From Yuukianura sp. NJ FZ-2021 (lineage: Eukaryota), in assembly GCA_046563655.1 (NCBI GenBank), contig CM102290.1, positions 14,384,001 through 14,448,000 of the forward strand: DNA of 64,000 nucleotides, read 5' to 3'. Below the pieces are notes generated by a model that had not been told where the DNA came from, searched no databases, and worked only from the letters and a program-made list of their open reading frames with translations. Made by a program: the position numbers and the translations under genes. Position 1 is the first letter of the stretch, and every line of letters starts with the position of its first letter. Positions 18,356-56,600 of this stretch are shown here, piece after piece.

Positions 18356-19916
18356 GACTAATCTAATTAAGTCTCAAAAAGTTGCATCTTATAACTCTTT
18401 GTAGAAGTAGAAATCTGTGACACCCTTCCTTCCTCAGTAACTTGTGCATTTGAATCAAGTTGTGTCATGATCCAGAACCTAATGTCCGGACCACCGTACC
18501 TGTTCACTCTCTTTCTTCAACAACAAACCGATGCCATACAACTGTAGAATGACTCAAGGTCAAACGTTAGCAAATGACCCACTTCAGAATCAATCAGTTT
18601 TCTCGAAAATTGTGAATAGGCATGCAGATAAGTAACTTGTTTCTAGTCTTAAAAACGGAAAAGTTGAGTATGAAAAAGAAACTGTGACTAATTTTAGTAT
18701 TCAACTCACTAATTGTGGATATTTACAATATTACTAATCGGTGGTATAATTTTAAGTAGGAAACACCATTAACTAATTACTGTTAAACTCTAATTGGGTT
18801 TACAAAATCCAGTGTTCAAGGTCGTGCAAAAAGTTAAGTTCCCATCCAACCTATTAATGAGTGTACTAAACTAAAAGCACTTTTATCTTTTAGCATCGCA
18901 AAATTCTTGTTCTCAATCCAATAATAACCGCTGATCGTTTTCAATAAAACCCGGAAAACGGACGTCAACTTCAACACGTTTCTGTTTAGCTATTATTTAA
19001 CAGGAGTTTTAACGGGTTTAAATGTATCACTTTTAACATGTTGGTTAGAAGTTTTGGCTCGTCAAATTTTACTGTAATTGCTATAAATTTCTATGTCGAA
19101 CTGACTAGAACTAATTGTTAATCAAAAATCTTAAAATCGGTGAAAAGCTTCAACTTTAAAGCTTTAAAGGTTTAAGAAGACTATTGATACGACTTTGTCC
19201 GTCTGTCTGTCTGTCCGTAACATTTTTAGGACCCTTTGCTCCTACTTTTGTGAATCAGTTTGACTTTTAGTTAGAATTTAGAACTCATATTGTACCACAT
19301 TAGTTGGTTCAACGTAATATGGTCAAAAACAATTTGGTCAAAAAGTGATATTAAGCATATTAGCATATTAATAGCAATAACATAGAAAAAATATTACAAA
19401 GCAACCTGATCTAACCTGTTTGTAATAGTTGACATTTTCAGTTTTTGAGCTTTTCACTTTTTGATCAAATTACTATCTTGAACTTGATCACTTCACCTGC
19501 TACGCATTAGTTGCATAAAAGTGACGCAACACGGGAAATTTTTAGTCCACTTCAAAAATACCTGCACTACAACCTTGAGAATGTCGTCGGAGTGTCGTAG
19601 TGTGCGCATGAACAACAAATTTTTCTCACACACTGTCAAATCAGAGATCCTTAACGTTGATATGACGGTACAACTTCATAACTCATCGTGCGTCACAATC
19701 TGGGACGTAAATCCTTTGAATTCCATATATTTTTTGCAATTTCCCGCGTAAATTAGACTTTTTCATAAAATTAGGAAAGTAGAATTAGCCGAAAGGTGTT
19801 AAATTCGGGATTTCCAGCAATTTGCTACGTAAATTGTCTTTTTCATAGTAATTAAAATTAATCCCTAATCGTGTGAACAATTTTTATTTTAGTTGATTAC
19901 GCACGGAAAGTTTGTG

Positions 19917-19953: not shown

Positions 19954-20100
19954 AAAATTTCATAAAAGTTGGCTTAAAACTTTCAATTTCCAGAACTATT
20001 TCGTTGTAAAAGCAAAAAGACATATTTTTTTAAACACCAAGATTTTAAAGTTGAGTTTTTTTTTGTTGAATTTTTAGCTTCCTTTTAGCTTTTAGTCGAA

Positions 20101-23100
20101 ATGGGTTCCTTGAGCACTGTTGATGGCACTGACATTACGACGCAATTTAAAAGCAATGTCATCGACAACCCAATTGTGGAAAAAGACACGACAGGAAATG
20201 GAATTGCAATCATTGGAATGAGCTGTCGATTTCCAGGGGCAAACAACCCACAAGAATTTTGGGAAGTGCTTTGTTCAGGTCAAGACGCCATTCGCCCATT
20301 TCCGGCCGAAAGAGCACAGGAAGCCCAAAACCGCTTTGGAATGGAATCGGACATCAAGGCGGGATTTTTGAAATGTGGCGTGGATGAATTCGATGCTAAT
20401 TTCTTTGGAATTAGCCCGAGAGAGGCTCCGTTGATTGATCCCCAGCAGAGGCTTCTTCTGGAAGTGACATGGGAAAGCTTGGAAGACGCGGGAATCAATG
20501 CTCACGAACTCAAAGGGACGCAGACGGGAGTTTTTACTGGAATTTGGCAACCGGATTACGACAGGATTCTAAACTCCACGACGAAAGACGCGAATGATCT
20601 GTTCCATCGCTATCTCGGAAATGCTTTCAGTGCAACGGCATCACGAGTGTCCTACTACCTGGGTCTCCATGGTATGGAAAACCTAATTTCAAAATTAATT
20701 ACCTAATGAATTACTTGAACTAGTTGAATTACCTATTGAATTACTTGAATTACCTACTGAATTACTAAATTAATTATGTCCCTCCTAGTACCTGGGTCTC
20801 CACGGTACAGAAAAGAAAATTTGAACTTGAATTACACAATGAATTACTTGAATTACCTACTGAATTACTTAAATTAATCATGTTCCATAGGTCCAGCAAT
20901 GGCACTGGAATCTGGATGCTCTTCGTCTCTTGGCGCCGTACATGTGGCCTGTCAAAGCCTTCTTACTGGAGAATCTTCGCTTGCAATTGCGGGTGGCGTC
21001 AATTTAATTTTGATTGGAGCAAATCCATTTACAAATTCAACGGAAACGGGGGGTGACTCCATTGTTCTCTCCAAAGATTTCAAGTGTAAAACATTTGACG
21101 AGTCTGCTAATGGATTTGTGCGGTAAAAATCATAAATATCAACTGTTTAACTGAATATGGACAATAATAGGTTGAAGTACATTTGGGATCTTTTCCACAC
21201 TTTTCCCCACATTCCAAATCCTACTCTCCAAATTTTTTCCCCAAGTGCTGCTGCCGCCTGGGGCTTCCACCAAAATGTTGCCACGAATGGTGGGATCACG
21301 TTTTGGTGGGTTTCATTGGGGTGTTCATGTGAAATTCAAAAATAGAAGCACTGGAAGTTGCAATCCACGAATTTCTCACTTGTTCAAGAATTTTAAACAA
21401 CTCTGATCTTTTTTTGAATTTGCCACTTTTTCAATAATTTCAGACAATTCTGAAAATTCCGGGTACAAATGTATCCATCTGATGGGTACATTTGGTGGGT
21501 ACCCTTATCATTAGAAAGGGTGGGTACAAGCGGGGAGCCCAAGTTTACTTCAACCGAATAATGTGTATTCAAAGTGAAATAATGAAGTTAATCCTAATTC
21601 CAGGGCGGAGGGTTGTGGCGTTGTGATTTTGAAGAAGTTTGATGAGGCAGTGGCTGCTGGATGCAACATTTTGGGAGTTGTGCGCGGGAGTGCAATGAAC
21701 AACGACGGAAATGGATCCAGTTTTGGTACTCCGAATGCGCAGGCGCAAGTGCTCGTTTTTGAAAAGGCTCTGGAGAAAGCTGGAGTGACGCCAGATCAAG
21801 TTTCATTCCTTGAAGCTCATGGAACTGGCACTCCCGTTGGTACGCGTCTTTTTACTCTTCACATATATTTTTCATGTTATATTTATTATATATTATATTA
21901 TATTTTTGTAGGTGACCCAATCGAAATGGAAGCCATCCGGCGGGTTTATTCAAAAAATCGAAAAACGCCACTTTACATCAGTTCGGTCAAAACGAACATT
22001 GGGCATTGCGAAGCTGCCGCTGGAATTGCCAGTGTCATCAAATCAATTCTTTGCATGCAAAAGAAACTTCTTCCACCGCATTTGAATTTGAACAAACTGA
22101 ATCCATACATTGACTTGGACCGAATTCCAGCCATTGTTCCCACGGAAGTAACCGAGTGGACTACGCAAAAACGAATCTGCGCAGTAAGCTCTTTTAGCAT
22201 GAGCGCCACCAATGTCCACGTCATTCTGGAAGAGCCTCCTGCTCTTACAGATTCAAAAGTTGCGCCAAAAGGTGCGCAAACTCTTTGTGGACCATTGATT
22301 ATCACAATTAGTGCTAAATCGAAAGATAGTTTGAACTTGTTGGTTCAAGCGTATATCAACTATTTAGAAACCAATAGTAACGTGACTTTAGAAGACTTTG
22401 CATATGCTGTCAACGTCACTCGGGCACAACTGACGCACAGAATTGCTCTTACGGCGTCATCAATTGAAGAGTTGCTGGAAAAACTGAAACGTCAAGATTG
22501 GTCTTACGCCAAATCCAACGCTAACACAAAAATTGCTTTTCTGTTTCCTGGCCAAGGTTGTCAGTATACAGGGATGTTGAAGAATCTCGCGCAAACTTTC
22601 TCCGTTTTTGGAAATGCTCTGAACGAAGCCAATGAAATATTTGAACTTTGCCTCAACAAGAAACTGACGCATGTCATATGGGAAAATCCGACTCTGTTGA
22701 ACCAAACACTGTACTGTCAACCGGCAATTGTCGCCGTGGAATATGCCTTGGCACAACTTTGGAAATCTTTTGGAATTGTGCCTGAGGCTGTTCTGGGACA
22801 CAGTTTGGGCGAAATTAGTGCAGCGATTTTGGCGGGAGTTTTGTCATTGGACCAAGGTTTGAAATTAATCATTGCTCGGAGTCTTCTAGTGGATAAATTG
22901 GAGGAAGGATCCATGATAGCTGTAAGTTCCAGCGAGCAGCAAACAAGATCTATGATTGCTCAATTTCAAAAATCCCGCCAAGATGAGTGGATTGACGTAG
23001 CAGCGGTAAATTCAAACAGCGAGGTTGTTGTATCTGGACCAACAGAAACGATTGGCAAATTTTTGGAATTTTGCCGCCAAAAAGGCGTTGAAACAATTCC

Positions 23101-26100
23101 AATTTCAGCACAACACGCTTTTCATTCAAGACAAATGGACCAAGTTCTCAAACCATTTGGACTTGAACTGGAATCCATACTTGAAAAAACAGTGGCTCAA
23201 CCAATGGTAAAGTACATTTCTGGAACGGAGGCAAAAGTAATAGAAACTGGGGAAGTTTTTGGTCCTGACAATTGGACGCGCCACTTGCGCGACCCAGTTC
23301 AATTTTCGCGCGCGATTCAAATTTTACTCCAAGATGACTTCAAAACTTTTGTTGAAGTTGGGCCCAGTCCGGTTCTCCTTGGCATCACCATGACAAATGC
23401 TGCGGAAATTTCTTTAACCGACCTGTGTGTAGCACCGTCTGCTCGTCGTTCGGACACTACAGTCCAAACATTTCAAAATTCACTCATCAAGCTGTATTTA
23501 CAAGGTCACACAATTGACTGGAGAGGTCAAACGCCCAGCAGAGGTCAACATCTTCAAATCCCAAAGTATCAATTCCAACGACAATGTTACTGGATAGGCC
23601 AAACAGACGAGAGTGAAGAGAATGGACAAAACGGCTTCATGTTTAGTTCAACTGCACAACACGATAAGTTGCATCCGCTCCTTGGCTTTCCCATCTCCGC
23701 TCCTGTTTCGGTAAAAATGTTTGCAAATGTTGTAAACGTTAAAAATTACCAGTATTTGGCAGATCATAAAGTTGCAGGACTTACGGTATACCCCGCGGCT
23801 GCTTTCATGGAAACTGCATTTGCGGCTGCGCGTGAAATTTTACAAGAAGGCGGTACTCTCAAATGCCCTTTGACTTTAGAAAAATTTGGAATTGATGCGG
23901 CTCTGGACATTGGTTGCGGAGTTGAGCTGCATACGACAGTGGAGCAACTTGAAACTGAAAACGGAGTTTCATACAATTTGGAAATTTTCAAAAAGTTGAA
24001 AACCGGAAAATTCAAAAGAAACATTTCCACAACATTTGTGCCAGGTTGTAAAGTGGCAGATAAAATTCAAGTTGACATTGGCGACATCAAGCGACGCTTA
24101 GAAGCAAAAGAAAATGGAGTAGTGGGCCGTGTTTATTCTGAAATCGCCGCAAGGGGAATAGAATTCGGACCAAAATTTCAAAGCATCAAATCCGTCTACG
24201 TCTCAAAAATCGGTGAATTTTTAGCAGAAATTTGTTGTGAAGAAATTTTGAAATCGTCTGACTACATTTGTCATCCTATTCTAATTGACTCACTACTTCA
24301 GACAAAAGCCCTGCAAACATACTTTGTGGATACAAATAATGATTTGAGCGACGGTGAAAACAAAATATGTCTACCAATTGGAATTGAGCAAATCACGTGG
24401 TTTTCAGAAATGTTCACACAGAAACTCTACACTTATTGCTTTCCAAATGAAAACGATGCGTACTCTTCCGTATTTTTGATAAACGAAGATGGACATGTTC
24501 TGCTCGAATTAAAAGGAGTGGAACTAATTGAAACTACGGCTGAAACAGTGTTGAACTCCATTGAACACCAAACCCCAAATGAACTGAATTTTTCAGCCGA
24601 AGTTTGGCGCCCAATTCCAAGTTTTACTCCAAAGATATCAAATGTTGTCCAAAATTTCTGCGACATCTCCATACATTCTGACAAGATCCAAACAATTTTA
24701 CGGGAGCTACAACGCATTCACGACATCAGCCTATCTAATGAGAACTTTAGCAAGATTGGGTTATATTCAATTATATATGCAATTCAACATTGCAACTGGC
24801 CGTACCAGGTTAGCTAAAAAATTAAATCGCGAACTTCTACGAATGCACATTTGGCTTTTTGTTATATATATATTGATATATTGTTTTTATAATTATGATG
24901 TGATTTTTTATATTCATTCATTCATTATATTTATAGGTGGGATCGGTTCTGAAGCGCGAGGATTGGGTCGTACGAATTCCAGAGAATTTACCCCCGCAAG
25001 TTGTTGACTACTATCTGTACAAGCTTCAGAGCGCAGGATACATTCAGAGTATTCCAAATTCGGAAGGCACAGGATACCTCGTAGTAAAACAACTAGAATC
25101 GACTTCAATTCTCGAAAACAATATAGAATACATTATTGCCCAGGCACACAACTATGAAGAGCTCAGACTCTTTGCTCGATGGATGAAAAAATTCTATGAG
25201 GAGCTTCCGCTTGTGCTAAGTGGTAGAATGACTCCCATCGAGTACCACTTCCCTACTGACACGTCGAAACTTAGTGCAATTGCGTTCTACAACGACGACT
25301 TGATTTACCGGTTTCAGAGTAAACTTGCAATGGAGTGCTTAATTGAAACTGCTAGAAACTCGGTGATGCCGATGTCAGGGGCATCCAAAGAATGTGAATC
25401 ATCTGTTTGTCCCAGCGGCCAAAATTTAAATATACAAATTTTGGAGGTTGGTGGTGGAGGTGGAATGGCTACTCAAATGATTGTTTCTGAGTTCAAGTCC
25501 ACTTCAGTCCAATTTGAGTACACTTTTACAGATATTTCACCCATTCTTGTGGAAGCGGCTAAGCAAACATTGTCAAGCTACTCAGAACTTAGTTTCCAAA
25601 CGTTCGATATTGAACAAGATCCACTTGCGCAAGGGTATTTGCCAGGTTCATTTGATGTAATATTAGCATGTCAAGTATTACATGCAACGAGGAATTTGGA
25701 AGAAACGCTACAAAATTTGAGAGTTCTGCTCCGTCCAAGCGGTCGCTTGATTTTTACTGAGTCGTTTGGGAGTATAGAAAGCATAGAGTGCAGCTTTGGA
25801 TTGCTGGAAGGTTGGTGGAGATTCAACGATTTCAGAAAAGAGGCCGGAAACGTCACACCAATCGTATCTTCTAATATGTGGCGCGAACTTCTGATCAACA
25901 CTGGATATGAAAATGTTACGACTATTGAAACGGCGTTCCCGTTCGGAGTAACTGTAGCTAACAAATTAGATGCGTCGTGGTTGCCTAGTGCGACTGCATT
26001 AAGTTGTGAACATTCCTCAAGGCCTAGCTGGATATTGGTGTCGGATCAAAATTCGTTGGCTGGAAGTGTCGCCAAATTGCTTCGAGAGTCAAACAGAAAT

Positions 26101-29100
26101 GTGACATCGTACAGTGTCCAAGATTGCATCCAGAAAGTTGTGCTGCTAGCTTCCAACCTGGAAGGAATTTTGTTTTTTTGGACAGAAAATTTGGACGATG
26201 ACGTACCTGGCACGGTGGTCCGGATAGTGATTTTAATTGTCCAAAACGTTAAGAGGAATTTCAGCTTAGTAAGAACGGAATTTCAAACATATAATATTAG
26301 TGCTTCATCGCCTAAAGTTTCATTGATTTGAATGGAACGGGCTCGAAGTATTGGCCTGAGAAAAATTGTAAATATCATTGCAGTGAATTGAGGGAAATTC
26401 AAATCCGTAGTAATCTTAAGTAACACAAGTCCTAGTCCTCCCATATGCTGTATCATATTGCATACACTAGTAGGTATATTACTGCCTGCCACCAGCCGCC
26501 CTTCTTCTATTATGGAGAAAGCATGAGCAAAAGAGTGGAACCCCACCCCTAAATTTTCAGTTTTGTAAACTTTCACTCTCACTGCCGTCAATCATTCTGA
26601 AATCACTTCAAAACATTATTTTAAGTGTCCAAACTTAGAAATAGTTAATTTTCAGCTTGCTTCAAAAAACTTGACCCGTTGTTATCAAAACTCCGTCGTG
26701 TCAAAGGTAATTGTAATCGAAAAATATACCATTTCATTTCCTTATATTCTAATTTAATTCATCTGTTGTTTGTCATTATCATTTGCAGGATGTCTGGGAA
26801 AAAAAACTTCACGAAGAGAGAGCTCATAGAGCAGTTTGCTTCAAAAACAAACAATGAAAATGCGAAGTTGGCTATGGCCTATATTTTTAACATCCTGCAG
26901 TTGAGGTCCGAACACGTTGATGATGACGTGCAGAACAAACTACTTAGTTCGTTGAAAGCACTCGCTGCTTCAGGGGAAAAAAGATGGGAGAAAGCCAAAC
27001 GGACGAAAGATCGATATGAATCACAAAATCAAGAATGGTTGGATTCATTATTTGTGGTAAGTACTGGTACGCCCCAAATCATGGGCTTTCCCAAATTAAA
27101 AACTGTTTTACAAAAAAAAATATATAATAAATTTCTTAACTATGGTTTTTTCTAATTCATAGATGCCTGAGGGTTTAGTGGTAGATCAGTCTCCTCAACA
27201 AGCGAGCGGAAGTGGTGGTCGACCGTCGCTGCCGTTTGCAGAGTCCTCGGAAAGATCAAGAAGGCGTCATGCGTCGGCATTAAAAGAGACAGAACCAGAA
27301 ACGGATAAATTGGTGATGGCTGGGGCAATGGCAGCAAGATCCGAAAAACGTTTCGACTTGGCAAAAATCTTAGCGGAGGCAGCAAAAAGTCCCAACAGGC
27401 CCACAAAAATGCGTCGTATGCTGTTTCAACCAATGGAAAAACCTCAAGCCTATTCGCCAGATGAAGCCCTTGCTCTTTTGATAGACTGCGATTTCAGCAA
27501 AAGTCAATTCATGCGACTCCGAATGGGACTCAAGCAGAAGTCGGCGGATGTTTTTCCAAGATATGAGCTCCTACTTCAATCCAAATTAGCAGCAATGCCC
27601 CCGAAACATTCAATTTCTATTGCTAACAATGGGGAAAGGGCAGAAGTACAGCTTCAGTCACTATTGGACCACACTGCTTTTCGGATTGCAACATTAAATA
27701 GTGACGTAATCCTCGCTCACATGAACTTGAAGTCAGCCGATGCTCTGCCTGTTGAATTAATCTGCATTTGGGGTCTTGATGCTGCCACAGGCCACTCTAT
27801 CTACAGTCAAAAAGAATCTCAAGAAATTACAAGCTTGTTGGCTGTTTCAATGGTTCCTTTGCGTTTAGTCCGAGGAAATGATGTTCTCTGGATTAATCGG
27901 ACACCTCAGTCTTATAGATACTGTCGACCAATTTGTTTGTCGTTTGTAAAGGAAACTGATGAAGTGGTGAAAGCTGAAACGTCAAAAATTGAAGCTCAGA
28001 TCCAAAAACTTTCAGAATGCAGCATCAGCCTTTCGTCTAAGCACACGACGCAAGTCTCATACCGCATGTTCTTAACAATGATTGATGGAAAAATTTTGAG
28101 TCATCTAACGGGGACATCCAGTATGCAAGTTTGTCCAGTTTGTAAGGCTAAACCTACCATGTTCAACAATTTAGCAAATGTGACTAACGGAGTATTCACT
28201 CCAGAAGCAGCTGCGCTTCAGTTTGGTGTTTCACCTTTACACTGCTGGATTCGGTTCCTAGAATGCTGCTTGAACATTTCTTACCGGCTTGATTTTAAAA
28301 AATGGCAAGCAAAAGGTCCAGTTTTACAGAAATCCAAGAAAGATCGACAGAAACTTGTTGGAGACTTGCTGAAAAAAGAGATGGGATTGATTGTAGACAA
28401 AGTGAGGCAAAATGGATCAGGAACTTCAAATACAGGAAACACTGCACGACGAGCCTTCACCGATTATTCTACTTTTGCCCAAATCACTGGGCTAGATGAA
28501 GAGCTTATCAAAAACTTCAAAATCATTCTGATTTCCTTGTCATGTCAACTACCAATTAACCCTATTCTCTTCGGAGAACTATGTTCGAAAACAGCAGAAA
28601 TCTACGTCCAAAATTACAATTGGTTCTACATGCCGTCTTCGATTCACAAGATCTTAATGCACGGAGCGCAAATTTTAGCACACTCTATTTTGCCTGTTGG
28701 AGTCATGAGTGAAGAAGCTGGTGAATCACGACATAAGTACTTCCGAAGAGACAGAGAAATTCATTCACGGAAGAGAAGGCCGCAGGAAACGATGGAAGAC
28801 ATTTTTTATAGGGCACTTCAGTCTTCAGACCCAATTATTTCGAATTTCAGTCTGGAATCACGATTAAAAAAGAAGAAGAGTTTGGCTCTTCCAAGGGAAG
28901 TTGTGGAAATGCTACTACTTCCAGAGGAGCCGGAGCAAATGGACATCAGCGATGAAGCCGATGAGGACGATGACGGGACGGGGCTTTTAGAAGTGTTCAA
29001 GTTGCTCGAAAACCTCACGCTTGACACTGAAGAGATAGAATAGCCATTTTCGATCGTACTTGATTAATTTCATGAATATTTCTGCTGGTTCTCATTTAAA

Positions 29101-32100
29101 AATGGACATTTCCCTGTCACTACACGTGCAGAATCCATGTAGTTTGATAGTGCGCCATCCCAGTTTATCGCTTGGTAACGTAAAATGCATATTTATGTTA
29201 GATTTAAGCAAAATAAACAATTTAAACTCATATTTTGTTTTGGCCAACAAATTCGTTAATCCGGACCACTGTGCCTGGTAAAGAAGATAAATATATCGGA
29301 AGCCTCCTGCGGTTACTCAAAACTTATGCCGACACACACAAAGCCAAGAATGCAAAAATTCGAATTGTAACCCGTGGAGCCTTTGTCATTGGAGATGACG
29401 AAATTCCAAATCCAAAAAAAGCAGCGTTGTGGGGACTGGTGAGGGCCTTTCGCAATGAATATCCGAAACACGATCCATTTCTCATAGACTTTGGACAACT
29501 TGAAGCGGAAGACGAAGGACGTCAACTTTTTGCAACTTTGTTTAGTCCAAAGACCGAAGAAGCCACGGTATTTCGAGGTAACAGGACGTACGTGCTTCGA
29601 TTTGTCGACTCGTTACCGCAACGAACCAGAGTAAAACTTCCGAACTGCGAACGGTACCGGTTTATAAACCCAACGAGTGGCTACTTCGCTGATATTAAAA
29701 TTGGCCCAGACACGGCTAGTGATCTAAGAGAGAACGACGTTGAAGTAGCGGTTAGAGCTTGTGCACTCAACTTCAAAGACATCTTTTGTGTACTCAAACC
29801 AAAAGAATTTGAAATTCCAAAACAGCATTTGGACCATATTGGGCTTGATGTTTCCGGAGTCGTTACTCGAGTAGGTCCGAAAGTTACTCGCTATCAGGTT
29901 GGGGATGAGGTCGTCGGGATCTCTATCAATGGCGCTATCGCGAGTCACACGGTTTCGTCGGAACTGGGGTTGTGGAAAAAACCAAAAGGAATCTCATTTG
30001 CGTCTGCCGCTGCATGCCCAACCGTGTATTTGACGGCGCACTACGCATTGCATCATTTAGCAAAATTACAGCCAGGCGAACGCGTCCTAATTCATGCTGG
30101 ATCTGGTGGCGTAGGCCTTGCAGCTATTGACCTTGTAAAGAAATGTGGAGGCCAAATTTTTGCCACGGTTGGATCAAAACGAAAACGTACATTTTTGGAA
30201 CAATTTTGTGGAATCACACATGTTTACAACTCAAGAAACACCCACTTTGGACAACAAATTTTAGATGACACAAATGGACAAGGGGTAGACATAGTGCTAA
30301 ACTGTCTCACTGGACCAGGGTTCAAAGAAGCCTCTCTTTCAGCCACTGCACTTAACGGTAGGTTTGTTGAATTGGCCAAAATGAACATCTGGACAACTGA
30401 AGAGGTAAGCCAGCAGCGTCCAGACGTTCAATACAAGTTTATCGAACTGGAGGCCCTTGATTTTAGAGGAAAACAAGACTTTCCTGACATCATGCACAAA
30501 ATTGAACAAGAATTTGGAGACAGCTTTCCAACACTACCGTGTAAAGTCTTTTCTTTGGAAAATATTCAGTCTGCTTTTTACTACCTTCAAGAAGCCAAAC
30601 AAATCGGAAAAGTGGTGTTGCGAATGCCAACAATAGAAGTGAAGCATGGATCACTCGTTCATTCTTACCAAATGTTCAATTCCTGTTCTACTTATATTAT
30701 TACCGGTGGCCTTGGAGGAATAGGAATAGAATTGACAAAATGGATGACAACCAAGGGAGCTGCAAATATTGTTTTGGTGGGTAGACGTCCACCTTCTGAG
30801 CAAGCGCAGGCCGTTGTTGATAATTTGAGAAACAAAGGATTCAACATACTCGTTTTAAATTTGGACATTTCAAAAGAAGAAGACTGCGACAGACTTTTCG
30901 GAGCAGTTGAACATTCCGATACTCTACCGCCGCTAAAAGGGATTTTCCATGCTGCTGGAGTACTGCATGACGCTGCATTTGAAACCCAAAGTTGGGAGTC
31001 ACTCCAAGCGTCACTAGCTCCAAAAGCTCACGGCGCATGGAATTTGCACTGGCGCACGCTCAATACGGATTTGGAATTCTTCGTTTTATTTTCTTCCGCA
31101 GCGTCGCTGTTTGGCAGTGTGGGCCAAGCACCGCACGTAACTGCAAACAAGTACTTGGATGGATTCGCTTGGTATCGACACTCATTGGGTCTGCCTGCTA
31201 CGAGCATCAACTGGGGATTGTGGTAATAAATTATTTAGCTGCCATTTACTCCAAATATTGGTTTTAAATTTAACTGTGTTAAGTACAAACCAGTAGGAAA
31301 AGCTACGTGGTATAATGCATCCTGCGCAGAGCGGAGCCGGATAGCTCAATTGGTAGAGACACTTCCAGCACTGTAAAGATGTGGGTTCGAGCCCCACTCC
31401 GTTTAATATTTTTTCTGCACTGTCATTCTTTGTAAAACTAAAAACAGAAATTGTCTGGAATAACAACCAATGAATTTTTCCGTATGCAACTGTAAACACC
31501 ACTTTCTTTTATGCAGGAAGGGCATTGGGGCAGGCAGTGGAATCACGAATGCTCAGGAAAACATAATTGGGCTCAAAGGTTTTCCAGCTTCCGAGGGATT
31601 GAAAGCACTAGAGCAAATGATGAATATGGATATGCCGCAAGTGGGATTCGTACCCACACGCGGTTGGAAAATAATGAAATCTTTCTTTTCCTTGGGTCAT
31701 TACTGGGACGAAGTGGAGATTCAGAAAGATGCGGTTGACAGATTGGCAGAAATGCAAAAGGAAATGGATATAATCAAAGCTTGTGATCCAAGTCTACGAC
31801 AAGAAAAACTTCGTGCATTTATCGAGTCCATCGTCAAAGAAACATTAAGACTTCCAAAAGACGAAGTTCTGGACATTGACCAGCCAGTAAGTGAAATGGG
31901 AGTGGATTCTCTGATGGGCATGGAAATGAAAACACGGATAGAAAAATTAACTGCTCGTAGTATACCAATCAGCGCCATGCAGGAGAATCGAACTATCCGA
32001 AAATTATCCGCATATTTAGCTCGGGCTCTATGGACTGACCAGGATCCAACTACAACTTCTCACCTAGATCAGAGTGAAGTATTGAAATCTGACTCAATTT

Positions 32101-33335
32101 TACCTTCCGAAATGAGAGAACATTTTGCAAATAATATCTCAGGGCAAGCAGTGGTGAACAGAGATTTTAAATCAGTGTTGGTGACCGGCGTGACGGGTCA
32201 CTTTGGAGCTCACGTTCTTGCAGAAATTCAGAAAATGAACAAGGACATTCACATTTTTTGTTTAGTTCGGGCAGCTTCTGACGAAACTGGAACCGAAATT
32301 CTTCGGAAATCTTTGGCATACTATGAGCTAGAGGTCAACTTTAACCAAATCTCTGTTTTTGCTGGAGACGTTTGTCATGACCTCCTTGGATTATCGGAGG
32401 AAAAATACGAGTTGTTGACTGGAAGAGTTGACGCTGTTGTGCATTGTGCCGCAAAGGTCAATCATATTGAAAGTTACTTTGACGGTTCTGCGTATGACAT
32501 GAGATCTGTCAATGTCCAAGGCCTTCTGCGCATCCTCAGATTCTGTACGGATGGACGACTCAAGCATATCATTTATCCATCGGCTATGTTATGTGTAACG
32601 GAAGTGGATGAGGATGGGGCACTTCCAGAACGTTGGCTACCATTAAATAGTTATGAGAAAATACAAAATGGATATCTTCAGTCCAAAAGCATTTGTGAAG
32701 CACTTCTGCAACAAGCCGCTGAAGCAGGAGTTTTGGTCACGCTTTTCCGAATTCCATTTTTGTATGCGAATTCTGTTACGGGAATTCCGAACAGAGGATT
32801 TGATCACATCTGGACTCTACTTTCAACCTGTATCAAGTTAAGAAAATTTCCAAACCTTGTTCACACTGGAGGAGTTCCACTATTTCCGGTCAATATTTGC
32901 GCCCAAATTTGCGCAGAAATATTCATGAACAGCGACACTGAAACTGGAGTGTACAATCTCATCAACAACAAACAAATTACACAACAAGACGCCGTAGAAA
33001 TTGGGGCCGAGCTGGGGATTGAATTTGAAGTGGTTGAATTTACTGAGTGGCGGGACGCTGCATTTGAAGACTTGGAAGACGATTTGATGAAACCTTTGTT
33101 TCCAATCTACGCAGACGCAGAAACGGGACAATCAAATGTGTTTACCTTTCATTCTTTGGGAGACGAGTGGAATCGCGCCCTCCAAAAGAACTACAGTCCG
33201 AAAACTCTTAAAAACCTACCGGGAATTGAAGCGATAAATTCGTTTTCTCCTCAAGAGTTATTTCGACGGCGATTGGTGAATTCTACAAAACAAGAACAAG
33301 GAAAAATTTCAAAAAAGAACAAAATTTATTCTTAA
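20101..33335 (+). CDS. Type I reducing polyketide synthase KS-AT-DH-cMT-ER-KR-ACP-thioester reductase (~2990 aa when reconstructed); exon 5 interrupted by a Transib transposon in this haplotype
   Basis: Exons 20101-20671, 20891-21122, 21604-21839, 21912-24808, 24937-26210 joined to 29279-31222, and 31517-33335 sum to 8973 nt (2991 codons). KS: DPQQRLLLE, ESGCSSS, EAHGTGT, NIGHCEAAAG. AT: GQG, GHSLG, HAFHS. DH: HKVAGLTVYP, DSLLQ. cMT: LEVGGGGG, VLHAT. ER: IHAGSGGVG. KR: TGGLGGIG, GVLHD. ACP: GVDSL. R: TGVTGHFG, GYLQSK. Confidence 0.93.
21170..21556. mobile_element. Non-autonomous TIR element (MITE) in PKS intron 2
   Basis: Left end ggttgaagtacatttggg (21170) is a near reverse complement of right end cccaagtttacttcaacc (ending 21555). 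aataat flanks both sides (possible TSD). Internal gggtac subrepeats. Confidence 0.65.
26211..29273 (+). mobile_element. Complete autonomous Transib DNA transposon (RAG1-related), 3063 bp
   Basis: TIRs CACGGTGGTCCGGAT and ATCCGGACCACTGTG (14/15 match) plus a second matching block at TIR positions 27-37. GC-rich 5-bp TSD CCTGG at 26206-26210 and 29274-29278. Encodes an intact Transib transposase. Confidence 0.96.
26790..29043 (+). CDS. Transib transposase (RAG1-core-like DDE), 715 aa, two coding exons
   Basis: Exons 26790-27056 and 27163-29043 with a phase-0 GTAAGT...CATAG intron; probable 5'UTR intron 26707-26788. Catalytic triad in WGLDAATG, MIDGK and SEEAGES. Zn ligands CPVC and HKILMH. Also CRPI, GVSPLHCWIR, GTSNTGNTARR. 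AATAAA at 29212. Confidence 0.93.
31335..31404 (+). pseudogene. tRNA-like pseudogene or SINE head in PKS intron 5
   Basis: A box TAGCTCAATTGG, perfect T-arm gtggg-TTCGAGC-cccac, partial acceptor stem. The anticodon arm does not pair well. Confidence 0.55.
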
Positions 33336-33504
33336 ACACATTAACTCCTATTCTACAGTAATTCATTTACAAAATTAATATTTCAAACTGTAGATTTATT
33401 TTCAAATTAGCTACAAGATTAACACTTATGATTACAATTATCTTTGGAACAACAAAGTAAATGCGAAAAGTTATATGCGAACATACAGAAACAAAAATTT
33501 GAAC

Positions 33505-33662: not shown

Positions 33663-36485
<2,823 letters not shown>

Positions 36486-36930: not shown

Positions 36931-39900
36931 TCAGGCGTCTGACTCTTTGAGTGACTCCAGTTTAGCCAAGTTGTGGAGTTCGATTTCATCTGGAGTGACT
37001 GGACTCTGGCTCTCCTTGCTCTCTCCACGCAGAAACCGATTTTCATCCTCTATGTCCAAACTGCTCTTGCTCGGCTGACTATCGCTGGCCACTGGAACTT
37101 CTTCACTCTCGCATACTGACTCGGCGGTTCCAGACACGGAAGGTTCCACGGTGTCCTTGGCAGTATTCTGAGGCACGTCGCTACTAAAGTCTCCGCCCAT
37201 TTGGGAAAAGTCTGCAAATCCTCCCTCCTCCTCCTCATCCACATGCTGCTCAATGACAACTGGAATGTCCACTGGAACTGCTGGAGGCTTGTAGACTGGA
37301 GGAGGAGGAGGTTCGTCTTCCAGATCCTCCTCCTCCTCCTCAATGATGGCATCTCCTCCGGGGAAGGCTTTGTGCTCTTCAGACATGGGTGTGGCAGCAG
37401 TGATGACGATCTGCGTCACTTCAAGTCCTTCACCTGAATCTCCTTCCTGGAATTTCAAAATTTTGAATTTACAGAATTTTAAAATTTTGAATTTACAGAA
37501 TTTCAAAATTTGGAATTCACAGAATTTCAAAAAACAGGATTTCAAAAAGCAGTTATGGTTTTCTTTATGTCTGGACAAGTTGACCTCTACGATGTTGCGA
37601 CTTACTTTTTTCTCCGTGCCGTCGACTGTATCTGCCTCTGTGACGGTAATTTCAACTTTGATATCTGAAATAATGAAAGTAATTAATTTAGTCAAATCAA
37701 TTAATCAAGATCAAGTGCTCAAAATTACCGGGAGCTTCAGTGACAACCACAACTGTCTCCGGCTGCTCCTCAAACTGTGCTTGATACTTTTGTTGCTGGT
37801 CAATGTTGAGTTCCATTTCAAAACCAGGTTTATCGTTAGGATAAGCTTCGGACTCTGAAAATCAAAATTCAAAATCAGCTTTTTAAAAAAAGTTGTTTTT
37901 AAAAATGAATTGAAAACGACATACCGAGTTCAGTTTCGTCTTCTTCGATTCCCCCCTGCGCTGCTGTTTCATTAGTTTCCGGTGGAAGTTGACCTTCTGG
38001 AATTTGTGGTGGCGTGTAGGCTGGAGGGTTCATGCCTGATTCAGAGATTTCTTCTTCTTCCTCTTCCTCAACTTCCATTGGCTAACGCATGAAATATTTA
38101 ACAAAAAGTGATTGAATTAGGATCGACTTCTCTGGAAATGTCAAGAGATTTGAGATACTTACGGCGGGAGTGAGAGGTTCTCCGTCCCAGTGACACTCGT
38201 CACAAACAATTGATGGGAACAGACCACGCTGTCCATCATACTCTCCTTCCCACCAACCATCTTCTTCGTCATGCGGAGTCTGAAAATGTCAACAAAAAGT
38301 GTTAATAACTTAGCGATTAATCGATTAACTAAGACGAGTTGATTTCATACGTATTTGGTAATACGGATGATTTGACCCTCGTAGAATGACAGTTCCTCTG
38401 GAGCTGTCGCTTCATAGTCGTACAGAGCTCGACAAAAGTTTCCTTCTGTAAGAGCCACATTGGTATCAGTTTAATTGTAAGTTAAGTATAACGTTTTCAT
38501 AACGTTTTCAAATTGGATTGATGTTACCTTCACCGCGACATTCATTGATGAATGGAGTAGTTAAACCGGAAGAAACAGTGGTAGGTGCCGTGGGGATTTG
38601 GATTTCGTCTGGAAGATTTCCTTCATTGTAGAACTCTTCAGCCTCTTCTGGATAGCCGTTACTAATGCCATTGGGTTGTGCCATATCTTCAATCATTGTC
38701 ACCTCATCTTGGTCCGTAGCATGACTCATTTCCTGGACATGGTAGTCAACCGATGAGAAAGAGATTTGAGGCTGAAGGGGATATCCAGCCACGGTCGGAT
38801 TTCCCTCAACTTCTACGTAGTTCTGCGGAACGTAGCCTTCTTCCCCCTTGTAGTTCCTTGCTCGAACCCAACCGTCGCCATCTCCCTCTCCAAGCAAATC
38901 CAAGTGCTCATTCTCCAAAATCGTCAGCTCATCGGGATTTTGTGCCTGAAGTAATCGGACGTTTTAATTTTCATAATTAACGATTACTATAGCTAAGTTA
39001 ACGTTCATCTTACGTTATAAGAATACAGAGCTACGCAGCGGACAACACCGGGCTCTGTTCCGGTATCGTGAGGCCAAGAGTCACTCTGTCCAATTTGAGA
39101 TATATCGGCTGGTGGACTACGGGCCACTTCTTCCTGGTCAACGTGCTCTTCATTGTCATTGTCGTCACCCCAGTCAACTTGTGTAGGGTCATCCCAGGTC
39201 AACGGTGCTGTTCTCTGACGAGCCTCCTCGACACGAGCTGAAACATCGGATAGACGTTATTAGACGTTAATTAGGAATTGATTAATCAAGTATCTGATTA
39301 CCGTCAATGCTGACTTCTGTAATTGGTTCAGGAGATTCTGGAGGAGGTGGCTCCCGTTCAACTTGCTGGGGTGGCTTGACCTTTTCAAATGGAGAAGGAG
39401 AGTCTTGCGAATCGCTGTCGTAGTAGCTGTCCACTACTCGATTCTTTTCCTGAGTTAATTAAACAAAGTAGTAATTAGTTACGAAATTTAAAAAAAAATT
39501 ACAATTTACAAAATTTAATTACAAACTAAAATTAAGAATTTATGTAAACCCTATAACCGCATTCGAAGTTTGGTTTTTCTAAAGAGCGGGAATTCTTTTA
39601 CAAAATTTTGAAAATTCAAATTTCAAATTCGCGGTATTACAGACCACAAGTGACGTTATTTTTAAACTTTTTCTTCTTTGTTCATATCGTCTACCAGTGT
39701 TTTAATTGGGTTATTCAATTAATTGTGGTAAACGTAATTATAATTGTTGTTTACGTAGCAGGAAACTAACAGTAAGTTAATTTCAATAGCTTTGATGACA
39801 TCTAAATTCTATTAACACCGGAAGAACGAAAATAACGAAAAGGAAAATTTTCAAAAATTCAAAAAACTTTTCGCCAACTTTCACATCCCTTTCCAAAGTT

Positions 39901-50600: not shown

Positions 50601-53600
50601 TTATCTCACTTCACAACTGTCTGACTGTTTTGGATTAGTGTTCTCTCGGTCCACTTCCTTAGTTGTAGCATAACCTTCGTAGCAACGATGCAACTTCAGT
50701 CGAATCGGCATCACTTTTCCTTTCGGTCCTTTCGACAGCGTAGGCGACGTTCCGGTTACGGCCGTGACACTGTTGGATGTCGACGGAATCACGACGACAT
50801 CGGCTGGAGTTGGTTTGAACTTGAGTACGGCCGTGTCAATTCCAGCATCTCCAGCTTGCACTTCATTTGATTTGAGTATTCCTGAATTCGGTGTCGTCCC
50901 GCCTCCTGCTCCAGAATCTTCGGTTTTTCTATGATTCGGTTTCGGACTCGTAGAAGTTCGGAGAACTCCGGAAAATTTGGACTTGAGTGACGCTGAAGGG
51001 GTCCAACTGCACCCACTTCCTTCGCTGCTTCCAGTAAATCCAGAATCTTGTTCCGCTGGAGCGGATTTGTCCGGATGTCCAGCGATTTTGTCCAGCGATA
51101 ACGCTGGAACTGGATCAGGTCCATTTTCTTTTTTCCCGCCACCGTCAATATTGTTGTTGTTCAGAAGCGTCTCCGTCGTGGCCCGATTTTTGCCGAATCT
51201 CAAAATGAGTTTTGGTCCGCCCCCTTCTGAGATGATTTTGACTTGGGAAGATTCCGTTTTGGACAAATCATCGTCATCTTCGTTGTTCCGTTTGCTTTTC
51301 TTTGACTTTTTCTTCTTCTTGCGTTCTCCACTTTTCCCTCGCTCATCATCAGCAAAATCTTGCATAATCTTCTCACGGAACATCAAACTTTGTCTTTTGA
51401 GTTCTTCCATTGGTGGAGGTGGGACTGGAACGCTCACTTCAGCGATTCCGCGCTTCTTCGGCGGTCGTCCTTTGGCTTTCTTAGAGTCCTTGTCACTCAA
51501 GTGATTTGAATCAACTGGTCCCGCTGTTCCTGTCGTACTGCATGTCGCCGAAGAGGAATTGAAATCAGCAAACTTAATTTTCAACTTCGGAGTTGGATGA
51601 TTAACGGCAGTTAGGCTCAAAGTAGACTTGACTTGTGCTGGGCCACTGGATGCTGCGGCAGTATCTCCTCCAGCATCGACTACTGGCGGTGGAACAAAGG
51701 CAGTAGTACTTCGGCTAGGTTTTGCTGCTGCTCGTACTCTCTTCCTCGAACTTGTTTCCAGCAGTTGAGCCGCCAAGTCACCGCGCCACCTCTCTCCTTT
51801 GACTGGATCCAGTAGTCCGAGCGCCGCCATTTCACGGTTCACACCGCGGTTTCTCTTTTTCTTCTCCTGGACTGGAATTGGCGGTGGAGTGGGAAGGGGA
51901 CAAAGGTCACTTGGTTCCAATCCATAGTCGTCTTTTCCACTAGGTATGATCTCCATTGACGCAACTGCTTTTGGTATCGTAATAACTCCTCTGCCATACG
52001 GATGAAAGTGTGAATGGGGGTAGTCTAATCCTGGATTAGTCGGATATCGTCCATCCATGTTCATGTCTTGATTACAATATTGACGCAATAGTTCTTTTTT
52101 CCTCATACGTCTCAGATTTAGTGGATTGTTCATCATGGTTGGAGTGGAATTCATACTGCCAAAAAGTGGTTCATGATGATGCAAATGTGTTGAGGCTTGT
52201 TGATGATGGTAAGTTGAGGCTTGTGTTATGGAATTGGAACTGCTATAGTTGGCATCTAAAAATGGACCTTTGATTTTAACTTTCAGTTGATTACGGGAAT
52301 GATTGTCTTCAGAGAACGTAGTTGTGAAGGAATCTTTAGAACTGGACAGACTTGACTCTCCTCCTGGTCCACTCGACGGCAAATTCTGACTAGTCTGACT
52401 TTTAGTCTGGCCCACCGTTACATGATTCACAGCGACTGGAACGTCTGGCCCTCCTCCAGCAGCGTTTAAGTTTGATTTTGGTACTGGAGAAGTCAGAGCT
52501 TCCAGTGTTTTGTCCAGTTCTTCAAAATCTGGAACAGACGCCATTCCCATGACATTGGTCGAGTTACTGCCCATCATGAGTGATGCAAATTCAGCAGCCG
52601 AAGATGACTTCCGTCCATCAAAGTTAGAGTGTCCAGCATATCCTCCGATGTCAACAGTAGAAGGATTGAATGTCCGCATGTCAACTGGAGCAATGAGGGA
52701 CGTTTGCAGTCCAGAACTTGACCTTTGGCGAGCCGCTTGCCCTCCAATATCATTTTCCGCGATGGTAGATTTTTGACGCGGTGAATTTTTCTCGACTCGC
52801 GGCGGCGGTTGTGGTTCACTTTCCTCTGAATCCTCGGATTTTCTCGTATCACCGCAAATTTCACTCGACTTCCTCCGATCCCGTAAACTTCTCAGATCAA
52901 ACTTATCTTCCGCGTTTTCTTCAAATTCGTCTAGGTCAATGTCGTATACTGTACCAGCCAAATCTTTTCTCACCAGTACATTCTTGCCTTTCGTTTTTCC
53001 ACGGCCAGGACCGCCGCGGCGCGGTGTCGTTGATCCCTTGGCTCCTCTGCCTGGCGACGTTCCACTTGCTTTCCTCTCTCCTTTTCCTTTGCCTTTTGGA
53101 CTCGCTTCTTCCGCAGCCATTTTTTCTTGTTTGACTTTCGGTGTGGTCGGTCTGCGGCCTCTTCCAGCTCCAGCGCCTTTCGGACTAACAGCGATTACTT
53201 GAGCTGCTATGATTGGTGGAGCGTAGTTAGCTCCTCCCCCTTTTTGTGTTGGTTGAATGTTATCGTTGGTCTTATTGGACAAAATGGCGCTGAAATCCGA
53301 AACAGTAGTGCTGGGTGACGTAGAAACCACGGTGGTCATAGCCTTGACAGCATTTAGTGTTGGAGAAACGAGTGGTGAATTATTGCTTGACAGATTTGTA
53401 CAACTGCTGGTAGGACTGCCCAGCATTTTCTGATACTGGTTCATTCTGAACTGGAAGTTGATGTCCATTGCGTTAGCAGCATTTTGTGCTCCAAATCCAG
53501 TATTTTTCATTGGCATCATATGATTGTGGGGATGATTGTTTGAAGCCTGGATGACACTTTCAATGATTTGAGCCACCGTGGACTGCGGCGGTGGTGGTGG

Positions 53601-56600
53601 GGCTGCCATGGGATTATTTGAAGAAGCTAGCAGCAGCGACGGCGACGTCAACGGTGGTTTGGACAACGGCGGCATTCCAATTCCAGAAGTGACGACTGCC
53701 AGCGACGTTGATTCCGACGGTCGCCTTCTTTCACTTGGCGAATGCAACGGTGGATCCATGGAGCCTGGAATGCCTAGCAACGACGACGGCGGTCCCAAAT
53801 TACTAAAGTGGTGAGCAAATCCAAGAGAAAAGGAATTTGAAACAACCGGAGGTGAGGACATTGGAGTTGAAATTGACAGTTTGGATTTAGAGCTCAAATG
53901 ACTGTTGCCATGGAAAAATGGTAAATTTCCACTTGACAACGACGTAACAACATTAGCCAACGTTGAGTTCATTGGAAACGGTAAAAATGCTGGATGAGAA
54001 GACTGGTACGGCGGTGGTGCTGGTACTGTTCCGGTATAAGTTGCTGTCAGTCCTGGTGGTAAGTTGATTCCAGGCGGTAGAGTTGGACTATTGTTGACTG
54101 TTGCCATGGAAACCAAATTGGTCGGAGCAGTTGCCATGGAAACCAGATTGTTCGGAGCTTCCATGAGGAGACCAAGGTGATGTGACTGGAGTGACAAGAG
54201 TCTGTCCAAAGATTCTTTCGGTTGCATCATCAATCCAAGTCCACCAGAATTCACTTCTTCCTTCATCACGTGACCTTGCTGCGAAATTTGACCTTGACCT
54301 TGCTGTGACATTTGACCTTGACCTTGCTGTGACATTTGACCTTGAAGGATTTGCGGAGAATGGAAATTTTGATTATGGAGTGGCATCAATTTTGGAGAAT
54401 TTTGATGAAATCGTGACTCCTCTTTGGCCAATGATTCTGGATGGCCCATTTTCCCAGTATAGAGATGCGAATGCGTGAAATTCCAACGGTCATCTTCAAA
54501 TTTAGGAAGATCTGGCGGCGTGGAACGCGTTGTCACGGCAACCTTCGGACCAGATTTTGTCAGATCACAAACATTTTCATCCGCCTCTGACTCTTGGAGT
54601 CTTCCAGCCTCAAACGCTGGTTCTGGAACAGGAACTGGAGTGACAGGAGTCGTGGCTGGAACAATCGCTGGAGGTGGCGGAGAGCTTTTGATTGGTGGAG
54701 CCGGTGGTTCTTCGGAAGTAATATCTTCAAATTCCGGTGGTCCGTCTGCTTCTGTCTTCTGTGTCCCACCGGACTTTTGTTTTTGTTGTAACCTCAACTT
54801 CTCTACTAAATTGATCGTCGCTTGAGCTGATTCTTCTTTGTTGTCTTCCCGTGTCAGCGCTTGAGAAAATGAAAATGACAGCGATTCTCGCTTGTTCTCT
54901 TCCTCTCCAGCGTCTCGACCGTAGTCCGCGGATACGCTTCGAGCCAAATCATAGAGATCATTGTCAAAGTCCAGAAGATCAGTAGGTTTCGGCCCATGCG
55001 TTGTCAGGGGTGACGGTGAGAAGATGGATTTCGGCATCGATGGGGCCGTGACCGGTACAGGTATCGGTACCGATACCGGCGGTACCGCTGTTGACATTAC
55101 TGCCGGAACATGACTTTGTACTTGGATTGATACAGTTGGAGTGGGCGACAGAATTGGCGATGGATCGATTCTCGGCCTCTTCGCTTCCGGTTCTTCGACT
55201 TCTATCTTATGCACAAGCGTTTTGTCCTTATCTGGAGGGAGCGGTGACAAGCACCGCGGCGGTGGTTGGAACTCTTTTTGAGGAAGTGGTAGAGGTGATA
55301 AGCACCGTGGAGCCAGTGGCGACAAAAGTGTTGGCGGTGGGACAGGTACTGTAGGAATTTGAGCTTTTCGCGGAGAATCAGCTACTGCCGGTGGTTCCAC
55401 AACTTTGCTTTCGTTTTCCTTTTCATCAGCACTTCCGGAATCTTCCGAGAGGAGCCCGAGCTCTCGCTTTTTCGTTTTCGGCATCGGTCGGTTCTTAAGC
55501 TCTGGAGAAATGTTCGACCCTGAAGACCTGGACTGAGTTCGTCCACGCGGTTTTACCGGTACCGGAACTTCGGTTTTGATTTCTCCTTCTTCCGAATCCG
55601 AACTCAGCGCTAATTCATCCCGAATCAGCGATTTCTTGCTGCCGACGCTCGAGCTGGTAACTTTCTCCTCTTTGGTTGGTGCTTTGGCTTCACCGGCGTT
55701 CCGTTTCTCTTCGGTCTTCGTGAAAATGCCGGAAGTTCTGGAAGCGGCGATATCGACTTTTCCGGAGATCGTCGCTGTGTCGGGTTTTGATTGGCGTTTG
55801 ACTGGCGACACGGCAGCGGTTGTTCCACGGCTTGTGATTGGTGGTCCGGGTGACGATGGGCGCAGAAGCGGAACAGCACTTCTCCGTGGGCCAGACTTCG
55901 GAGGTCCAGTAGTCTTGGGCGTAGGTTTGACTCTGGGGGGTGACACGGACTCTGTTCCATTTCGGCCCGAAGTCGTCGGGAGCCGCTCGGAAGTTTTAAG
56001 CTTCTTACCTGGCCCTGACGCTTGAAGTGGAACGAGAGTGGGGAGCTGGATTGGGGAGGGTCTCGGAGGAGATACTTTGGAACGTACTGGAGATACTTTG
56101 GATCGTACTGGAGATGCTGAACCGGGAGAGGAGGAGCGTGACGAAGATGAGGATGAGTTGTATGACGACGAATCGGAAGAACTTGTGCTGCCGGAACTAC
56201 TGGAACTGGAACTGGAACTTCGCTCACGACTTCTACGACATGCTGACTGCGACCCCTTGTCAAGAAAGGGCCAGTCAACACTTTTCAGTTCTTCCTTTAC
56301 TGGTGACTTCCTTTCAGAATCCTTTCGACCCAGCTTAGTAGTACCATGAGGAAGTTGATTTCCTACAAAAAATCAAAAAAATTTCAAAATTTTAAGTTTT
56401 TCGTCTTTTTATGTAATTCTGCTCACATCAAGGTTGTTTAAATCGAAATTTTGTTTTTTCTTAACAGGTTATGCCATAACTCCTGTTTTAAAAAAAATTG
56501 TTTGTTTTGATTTTTTGTCTGCAAAGTTGACCCCGGGCCATGTAAAGCAATGGAATTCTCGTACAAAAAAAATTTTTTTTGTCGTAATTTTGAAAAAAAA

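Follow-up and report, generated by a model that had tools for sequence, protein, structure and literature searches.

Springtail polyketide synthases and the locus analysed

Animals are usually thought to be poor polyketide makers, springtails being an exception at the genome level. The genome of Folsomia candida is reported to hold 36 antiSMASH clusters, of which 30 are type I polyketide synthase (PKS) clusters, and horizontal transfer is assigned to most of the cluster genes (52) (PMC5490193). A horizontally acquired PKS of a springtail, lying outside the animal fatty acid synthase (FAS)-like PKSs (AFPKs), is described by Lin et al., who suggest transfer for many such arthropod PKSs (PMC10764717). 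Within the full-text literature searched, no report was found that assigns a product to any springtail PKS. The stretch considered here (the window) comprises 64,000 nucleotides of Yuukianura sp. NJ FZ-2021 (GenBank assembly GCA_046563655.1, contig CM102290.1, positions 14,384,001 to 14,448,000 of the forward strand), and all coordinates below are positions within it. At 20089-33335 on the + strand, long stop-free frames carry the Pfam domains of a PKS in the order ketosynthase (KS), acyltransferase (AT), dehydratase (DH), C-methyltransferase (cMT, or MT), enoyl reductase (ER), ketoreductase (KR), acyl carrier protein (ACP) and thioester reductase (R). It is probable that this locus is a nuclear, intron-bearing animal gene, its host being most likely a springtail or a comparable soil arthropod, for one fully reducing PKS module of the bacteria-like springtail family, present both as a null copy interrupted by a Transib transposon and as an intact allele, with a methyl-branched compound as the predicted product.

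Domain order and exon structure

The original prediction, made from the nucleotide sequence, had placed a synthase of the order KS-AT-DH-cMT-ER-KR-ACP-R at 20101-33335. The Pfam scan bears out this order, the start ATG at 20101 and the stop at 33335 are correct, and the description as a type I PKS encoded in an animal genome and equipped with the full reducing loop is supported. Judged by its Pfam scores, the domain series at 20089-33335 is far above chance level:

KS, N-terminal part, in exon 1, + strand (PF00109, 2.2e-46)
KS, C-terminal part, in exon 4, + strand (PF02801, 6.2e-37)
KS-AT linker, in exon 4 between KS and AT, + strand (Pfam)
AT, in exon 4, + strand (PF00698, 1.4e-52)
DH, in exon 4, + strand (PF21089, 1.5e-12; PF14765, 2.5e-15)
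Methyltransferase, in the left part of exon 5, + strand (PF08242, 1.5e-20)
ER, in the right part of exon 5, + strand (ADH_zinc_N, 3.6e-16)
KR, in the right part of exon 5, + strand (KR, 1.7e-60)
ACP, in exon 6, + strand (PP-binding, 2.3e-12)
Terminal R, in exon 6, + strand (NAD_binding_4, PF07993, 1.5e-43)

Introns were chosen from GT/GC..AG pairs whose removal leaves an open frame, the pairs taken being those that restore conserved PKS motifs. The resulting model has six exons and, once the transposon and one copy of its CCTGG target site are removed, a coding sequence of 8973 nt for 2990 aa with no internal stop (slashes mark splice junctions):

Exon 1, 20101..20671, + strand: start codon and N-terminal KS half; donor ATG/GTATGG at 20671
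Exon 2, 20891..21122, + strand: KS active-site Cys200 (CSSS; ..ESGCSSSL..); donor GCG/GTAAAA at 21122
Exon 3, 21604..21839, + strand: KS middle to HGTGTPVG; acceptor TTCCAG/GGC at 21604, donor TTG/GTACGC at 21839
In-frame intron of 72 nt within KS, 21840..21911, + strand: GT..AG ends
Exon 4, 21912..24808, + strand: KS C-terminal part, KS-AT linker, AT and DH; donor CAG/GTTAGC at 24808
Exon 5, 24937..31222, + strand, split by the transposon: left part 24937..26210 with the C-methyltransferase region, right part 29279..31222 with ER and KR
Exon 6, 31517..33335, + strand: ACP, terminal R and stop codon; acceptor TTTATGCAG/GAA at 31517

Joining 20671 to 20891 yields ..YYLGLHGPAMALESGCSSSL.., and excision of 21840-21911 restores HGTGTPVGDPIEME. 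A spliced gene of six exons had been proposed; the spliced coding gene stands, and its exon structure does not. The 3-kb gap between MT and ER, taken for an intron, is a Transib transposon lying inside the exon (26211-29273), and KS had been read straight through 21840-21911, where the 72-nt in-frame intron was overlooked.

Two of the introns carry features of their own. In intron 2, at ~21250-21560, the word depth of sequencing contigs is very high (10627 in run X1 for the bin 20902-21352, against ~250 in exons), and many loose contig ends lie at 21247-21360 and 21555-21558. The depth and the loose ends point to a high-copy repeat there, and a contig joint leading from 33500 back to 21514 suggests a further copy just downstream of the PKS gene. 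The last intron contains a weak Rfam tRNA match at 31335-31405 on the + strand (32.3 bits, gathering score 29, E 0.0076), which may be a tRNA-derived repeat; ARAGORN called no tRNA, at 31335-31405 included.

Catalytic motifs

The motifs that the original prediction had read from the letters (KS Cys-His-His, GHSLG/HAFH, LEVGGGGG, VLHAT, GVDSL and YxxSK) are all found in the spliced product or its translation. The KS carries CSSS (Cys200), HGTGT (His340) and NIGH (His378), and the AT carries GHSLG at 642 and HAFH at 748. The DH motifs HxxxGxxxxP and DxxxQ are visible by eye in the translation. Further downstream are ILEVGGGGG in the MT at 1480, GGLGGIG in the KR at 2213, GVDSL in the ACP at 2513, and GVTGHFG at 2609 and YLQSK at 2771 in the R domain. 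The HAFH motif is a marker of malonyl specificity in ATs, and its presence at 748 supports the malonyl-type AT that had been proposed.

The MT aligns with the C-methyltransferase of CurJ (5thy) at 119 bits, with the VLHAT His and the ..FTE Glu both aligned. The S-adenosylmethionine (SAM) loop and the CurJ-type His/Glu pair are retained. Among solved structures the R domain is closest to MxaA (4u7w; E 3.1e-29, 105 bits), with GxTGxxG and YxxxK aligned, which supports the assignment as a terminal thioester reductase. On these residues, both MT and R look active.

Relationship to bacterial, animal and springtail synthases

The protein was compared with solved structures region by region. The N-terminal KS exon reaches 100-149 bits with bacterial PKSs, 93 with Dictyostelium PKS16, 80 with human FAS, 75 with LovB and 70 with pig FAS. 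For the C-terminal KS, AT and DH encoded by exon 4, CurL is the best solved relative (346 bits), followed by DEBS (240-277), MAS (238) and LovB (141), and no FAS occurs among the best 60 solved matches (down to 103 bits). The KR scores 124 bits with MAS, 114 with DEBS, 82 with fly FAS, 77-79 with human FAS, 70.5 each with EcPKS1 and LovB, and 53.5 with EcPKS2; the MT scores 119 with CurJ and 78 with LovB. These values bear on whether the enzyme derives from animal FAS, as an AFPK or a modified FAS. Such enzymes have a similar megasynthase layout, and AFPKs are widespread in arthropods (PMC10764717). This origin is nevertheless already contradicted and seems very improbable: FAS and AFPK bit scores lie below those of bacterial PKSs for KS, KS-C/AT/DH and KR, the MT has an intact SAM loop with its His and Glu, and the terminus is R and not a thioesterase (TE). 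A KS grouping within canonical insect FAS, which the original prediction had named as the outcome that would overturn it, was not seen, FAS and AFPKs scoring below bacterial PKSs throughout.

The closer relatives of the enzyme were placed with a KS-AT tree (IQ-TREE quick search, LG+G4, 59 rows, 842 columns). Its rows were chosen by similarity from homologue searches, a BLAST match of at least 350 residues being required, and comprised 14 Collembola, 22 unnamed rows, 20 named bacteria, two fungal non-reducing PKSs (NR-PKSs) as outgroup, and the window protein. The window falls into a clade of 28 rows that holds all of the named Collembola (14/14) and 13 unnamed rows with no named bacterial row (SH-aLRT 100). 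Within this clade it groups with P0013 (100) and P0326 (100), apart from the other 25 rows (99). The sister of the 28-row clade consists of 27 rows, 18 named bacterial and 9 unnamed (support 97), and the two clades are joined at 85. By this join with a mostly bacterial clade, the tree is consistent with an origin of the window PKS by horizontal transfer.

In searches with parts of the protein, the KS-C/AT/DH frame mostly matched multi-module bacterial PKSs at ~30% identity, with P0013 nearer at 51%, and the ACP-R and ER-KR searches returned springtail matches from Orchesella dallaii, O. cincta and Folsomia candida, at 38-43% identity in ER-KR. Among 39 representatives below 3400 aa, taken together with P0013 and P0121, colinearity from KS to R including the MT was found for P0121, P0237, P0269 and P0263, the last lacking only the N-terminal KS exon; P0013 ends before ACP-R. 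The original prediction had considered a possibly uncharacterised pathway, and an unrecognised class of enzyme is not supported: among named proteins, predicted PKSs of springtails come closest, and such genes have already been reported. By these relationships, the window PKS belongs to a springtail-expanded, bacteria-like PKS family that is known, biochemically uncharacterised, and not a new class.

The closest relative, P0013, comes from a metagenome. A scan with a single protein query yielded no relative, and with an alignment query 19 loci (L001-L019), all of one data set, which seem to be the many paralogues of a single eukaryote in that sample. P0013 corresponds to L001, a full-length counterpart that is continuous across the transposon site and carries no transposon; its identity to the window protein is 68-75% for the KS exons and ~49% for the large exon. 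Its matches break after residues ~190, 267, 346 and 2384, the positions of four of the five window introns; the exon 1 boundary at 20671 is common to both, and L001 is also interrupted at the site of the 72-nt intron 21840-21911. At the 24808/24937 intron position L001 is continuous. The start regions are similar as well, each with a short non-conserved leader before ..GMSCRFPG. Other loci of the data set have fewer breaks, and L014 runs in one piece over residues 35-2899. These differing breaks fit a eukaryotic gene family that may have gained introns after its origin.

A Transib transposon inside exon 5

The coding sequence of exon 5 is interrupted by a DNA transposon with the following parts:

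Transib-type DNA transposon, 26211..29273, + strand: 3063 bp, bounded by inverted repeats, flanked by a 5-bp target duplication and containing a full transposase open reading frame
Target-site duplication CCTGG, left copy, 26206..26210
Target-site duplication CCTGG, right copy, 29274..29278: perfect match to the left copy
Transib transposase open reading frame, 626 aa, 27163..29043, + strand: match to 6pqn; Pfam RAG1 5.9e-6
Frame of 168 aa inside the transposon, upstream of the transposase, 26649-27155, + strand: without Pfam match

The left end reads CACGGTGGTCCGGAT (26211-26225) and the right end (29259-29273), as reverse complement, CACAGTGGTCCGGAT; an inverted-repeat search and a pattern scan give inverted ends of 15 nt with one mismatch. 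A 5-bp target duplication and ends starting with CAC(A/G)GTG are typical traits of Transib elements. The transposase aligns with the HzTransib structure 6pqn (E 4.9e-101, 342 bits, query 96-589 on chain 7-485 of 497) over a region containing conserved D/D/E-containing stretches, and has weak RAG1 matches besides. The element is apparently autonomous. The 168-aa frame could belong to the N-terminus of the transposase, from which a frameshift or an intron would separate it, or the element could carry it as a second gene.

The MT frame continues into the element at 26211 and meets a stop at 26331, and the ER frame opens at 29226. With the transposon present, translation ends at aa 1776, after the MT domain; with the insert and one CCTGG removed, the MT and ER frames join exactly (..DDDVPG/KEDKYIGS..). 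An intron of 3 kb was rejected for this insert, which is bounded by CAC..GTG inverted repeats next to a target duplication instead of GT..AG, and a listing of GT/GC..AG pairs gave no convincing in-frame splice pair across it. An exonic transposon may pass for an intron in gene annotation, of which this locus is a warning. The perfect target duplication and the near-perfect ends indicate a recent insertion.

A third match to the terminal repeat, with two mismatches, lies at 18484-18498 on the - strand, 1.6 kb upstream of the PKS start. None of 100 shuffles gave the three matches found in the window (0/100), and the additional repeat may mark a remnant of this Transib family or one of its non-autonomous members.

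Filled and empty alleles

Logan contigs of four DNA runs were aligned to 20000-33500; X1, X2 and X4 are from one sample, and X5, under a second organism label, has contigs that cover parts of the gene and not the insertion site. In three of the four runs (X1, X2 and X4), contigs with an empty site join 26205 to 29274. The joint skips 3068 letters (3063+5), the five letters that fit both sides being the target duplication, and its flanks of 1205 and 144 letters show 0-1 other differences. Contigs from the interior of the transposon were found in X1 (26210-26728 at depth 51.1; 26805-29274 at depth 69) and in X2, with essentially none in X4 and X5. The empty-site contigs have word depths of 216.6, 244.6 and 21 in X1, X2 and X4, contig depths not being equal to allele frequencies. 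In X1 the interior contigs end at the ends of the element (26210 and 29274), and no listed contig piece spans the filled junction by 31 letters, as is expected at a branch point of the assembly graph; evidence for the filled state therefore comes from the window sequence and from these interior contigs. The uninterrupted exon is real DNA of the same sample, and an intact allele exists beside the filled one. Presence and absence of the element within one sample suggest recent movement.

The two alleles raise the question of whether the locus is dispensable or decaying, with the transposon allele reflecting relaxed selection and the intact-looking allele silent or non-functional. A coding exon is hit in the assembled haplotype, and the PKS family is highly multiplied, with 19 paralogous metagenome loci and, in F. 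candida, 30 clusters (PMC5490193), so that single copies may be redundant. However, the empty-site allele has a stop-free frame of 2990 aa with all catalytic motifs kept, the target duplication and ends of the insertion are those of a recent event, and L001 keeps frame and introns at ~50% identity. We regard decay as improbable, and an intact allele beside a recent null remains the preferred reading.

Genomic surroundings

The window contains the following further features:

Serpin exon, 262-888, + strand (1.8e-47)
DEAH-helicase exons, + strand: Helicase_C 34964-35218, HA2 35395-36093
SH3 exon, 38508-38963, - strand
Ser/Pro-rich stop-free frame of 1923 aa, 50601-56372, - strand: without Pfam match

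With its serpin, DEAH-helicase and SH3 exons, the gene neighbourhood of the PKS is, by the domains encoded, animal-like. The four best solved matches of the serpin exon are serpins that we take to be of insects, a weak hint to the host. The arthropod housekeeping neighbours named in the original prediction find weak support in these exons. The Ser/Pro-rich frame is apparently disordered and lies where the G+C content of the window is highest (0.47-0.51).

These surroundings also bear on a misjoin of bacterial or symbiont PKS DNA into an animal contig, as might be suspected of a gene whose best-scoring solved relatives and many of whose database relatives are bacterial. The five GT-AG introns, four of them common to L001, already contradict it, and a eukaryotic Transib lies inside the gene, animal-like exons occupy the same 64-kb stretch, and contigs of independent runs cover exon-intron stretches. 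A misjoin is extremely improbable.

Evidence weighing against a functional springtail synthase

Several observations count against the reading of the locus as a functional, fully reducing PKS of the springtail family. The splice junctions are predictions based on homology, reading frame and GT-AG sites. By its reading frame, the copy in the assembly is a null allele unable to make ER-KR-ACP-R. In the tree, the named springtail rows all lie in the subclade that is sister to the group of the window, P0013 and P0326. The tree covers Collembola, unnamed, bacterial and fungal NR-PKS rows, and it is by bit scores against solved structures that animal FAS, AFPKs, echinoderm or vertebrate PKSs and fungal highly reducing PKSs (HR-PKSs) are excluded. 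None of the neighbouring genes in the 64-kb window resembles a tailoring or partner gene of a PKS.

The last point concerns the KR (30660-31220), in which the catalytic Tyr is replaced by His (GQAPHVTAN, against GQGAYAAAN in MAS). An alignment of the window with 36 chosen relatives (28 arthropod-type and 8 bacterial, 37 rows in all) shows His at this position in 20 of the 28 arthropod-type relatives and Tyr in the other 8, and among the bacterial rows Tyr in 7 of 8 and His in one (Scytonema). The KR Lys, Ser and LDD-type Asp are unchanged in 37/37 rows. In a review, the KR tyrosine is described as "sometimes replaced by histidine" (PMC7327777). A KR killed by the Tyr-to-His change was rejected on these grounds, as His occurs in 20/28 relatives in which the remaining KR residues are conserved, the window retains DH and ER, and the variant is noted in that review (PMC7327777). 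The His-KR is accordingly not read as dead, its presumed activity with His resting on that one review sentence.

Proposed reaction and product

If the enzyme is active as its motifs suggest, the malonyl-type AT would load malonyl units and the KS would elongate an acyl starter, either iteratively or in a few rounds. The cMT would add SAM-derived alpha-methyl groups in some or all rounds, and KR, DH and ER would reduce the chain fully. The R domain would release the chain as an aldehyde, which R or another enzyme could possibly convert to a primary alcohol. The expected product would be a methyl-branched saturated aldehyde or alcohol. A role as cuticular lipid, pheromone or defence compound, as put forward in the original prediction, is hypothetical.

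Lipids of this kind are known from springtails. Anurida maritima contains (2S,4S,6S)-2,4,6-trimethylhexadecyl 2,4,6-trimethylhexadecanoate, in which alcohol and acid share the skeleton, and springtails also have a polymethyl-branched ether; as a route to the methyl-branched lipids, the available text gives only a reference to the general fatty acid pathway (PMC11321324). Springtail PKSs of the window class may conceivably be the source of such polymethyl-branched lipids, for example of the 2,4,6-trimethylalkan-1-ol of A. maritima and the matching esterified acid (PMC11321324), a proposal that we consider rather unlikely as it stands. The enzyme would then follow a MAS-like logic in which SAM, and not methylmalonyl-CoA, supplies the methyl groups. 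That the 2,4,6-trimethyl alcohols of springtails fit such a logic is a lead and not evidence.

A different course of the reaction is possible, although we regard it as doubtful. The PKS might take a ready-made fatty acyl chain as starter and add just one to three methylated units to it, in a MAS-like manner with SAM methyls, or a slow or selective His-KR might lead to a quite different product, such as a partly reduced polyene or a keto compound. Among solved structures, MAS matches the KR best (124 bits) and KS-AT-DH well (238 bits), the KR does carry the His variant, and springtail lipids are described that have exactly three methyl groups (C2, C4 and C6) on a long chain (PMC11321324). However, the sequence gives no indication of how many rounds take place, and the N-terminus is without a starter-loading domain (FAAL, SAT). 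Release of a fully reduced, methyl-branched chain from a single module is the reading preferred here.

With exon coordinates, an intact allele and an active-looking cMT and R, the gene is a complete, well-defined candidate with which the origin of the methyl-branched lipids of springtails could be addressed. Its Transib insertion provides a natural null allele with which the chemistry of carriers and non-carriers could be compared. If such PKSs prove to be the source of these lipids, an animal would have co-opted a bacterial PKS for its cuticle-lipid or signal chemistry.

Comparison with known systems

Among solved structures, bacterial cis-AT PKSs (CurL/CurJ, DEBS and MAS) are the best matches of the window protein. 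Its KS-AT shares ~40-42% identity with that of Moorea, and bacterial PKSs make up the named rows in the sister clade. Unlike these synthases, the window gene has spliceosomal introns, encodes a lone single module and lies among animal-type genes. For the R domain, the nearest solved structure is the terminal reductase MxaA of the myxalamid PKS, at low identity. Animal FAS and the AFPKs EcPKS1/2 are likewise single-module megasynthases encoded in animal genomes; compared with FAS, the window PKS has an active-looking MT instead of a pseudo-MT, and R instead of TE. The fungal HR-PKS LovB scores below bacterial PKSs in all four regions (141 vs 346, 75 vs 149, 70.5 vs 124 and 78 vs 119 bits), and by these scores against solved structures the window protein is not of the fungal HR-PKS type.

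The inserted element compares with HzTransib (6pqn) and its RAG1 relatives in its transposase match, 5-bp target duplication and ends starting with CAC(A/G)GTG, and differs in being a new copy in a different host.

The springtail predicted type I PKSs are those of O. cincta (P0332/P0339), O. dallaii (P0121/P0336/P0337/P0343 and paralogues) and F. candida (P0410/P0354/P0413). They fall into the same KS-AT clade as the window protein, with ~41% identity to it over KS-AT and 38-43% over ER-KR. P0121 and other relatives have the same domain order as the window PKS, including cMT and terminal R. A further upstream N-terminal exon like that of P0339 or P0332 was considered for the window gene and rejected, no similarity to it being found in the window. 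The window PKS differs from its springtail relatives in being without the N-terminal extension found in P0339 or P0332, and in that the window copy carries a transposon.

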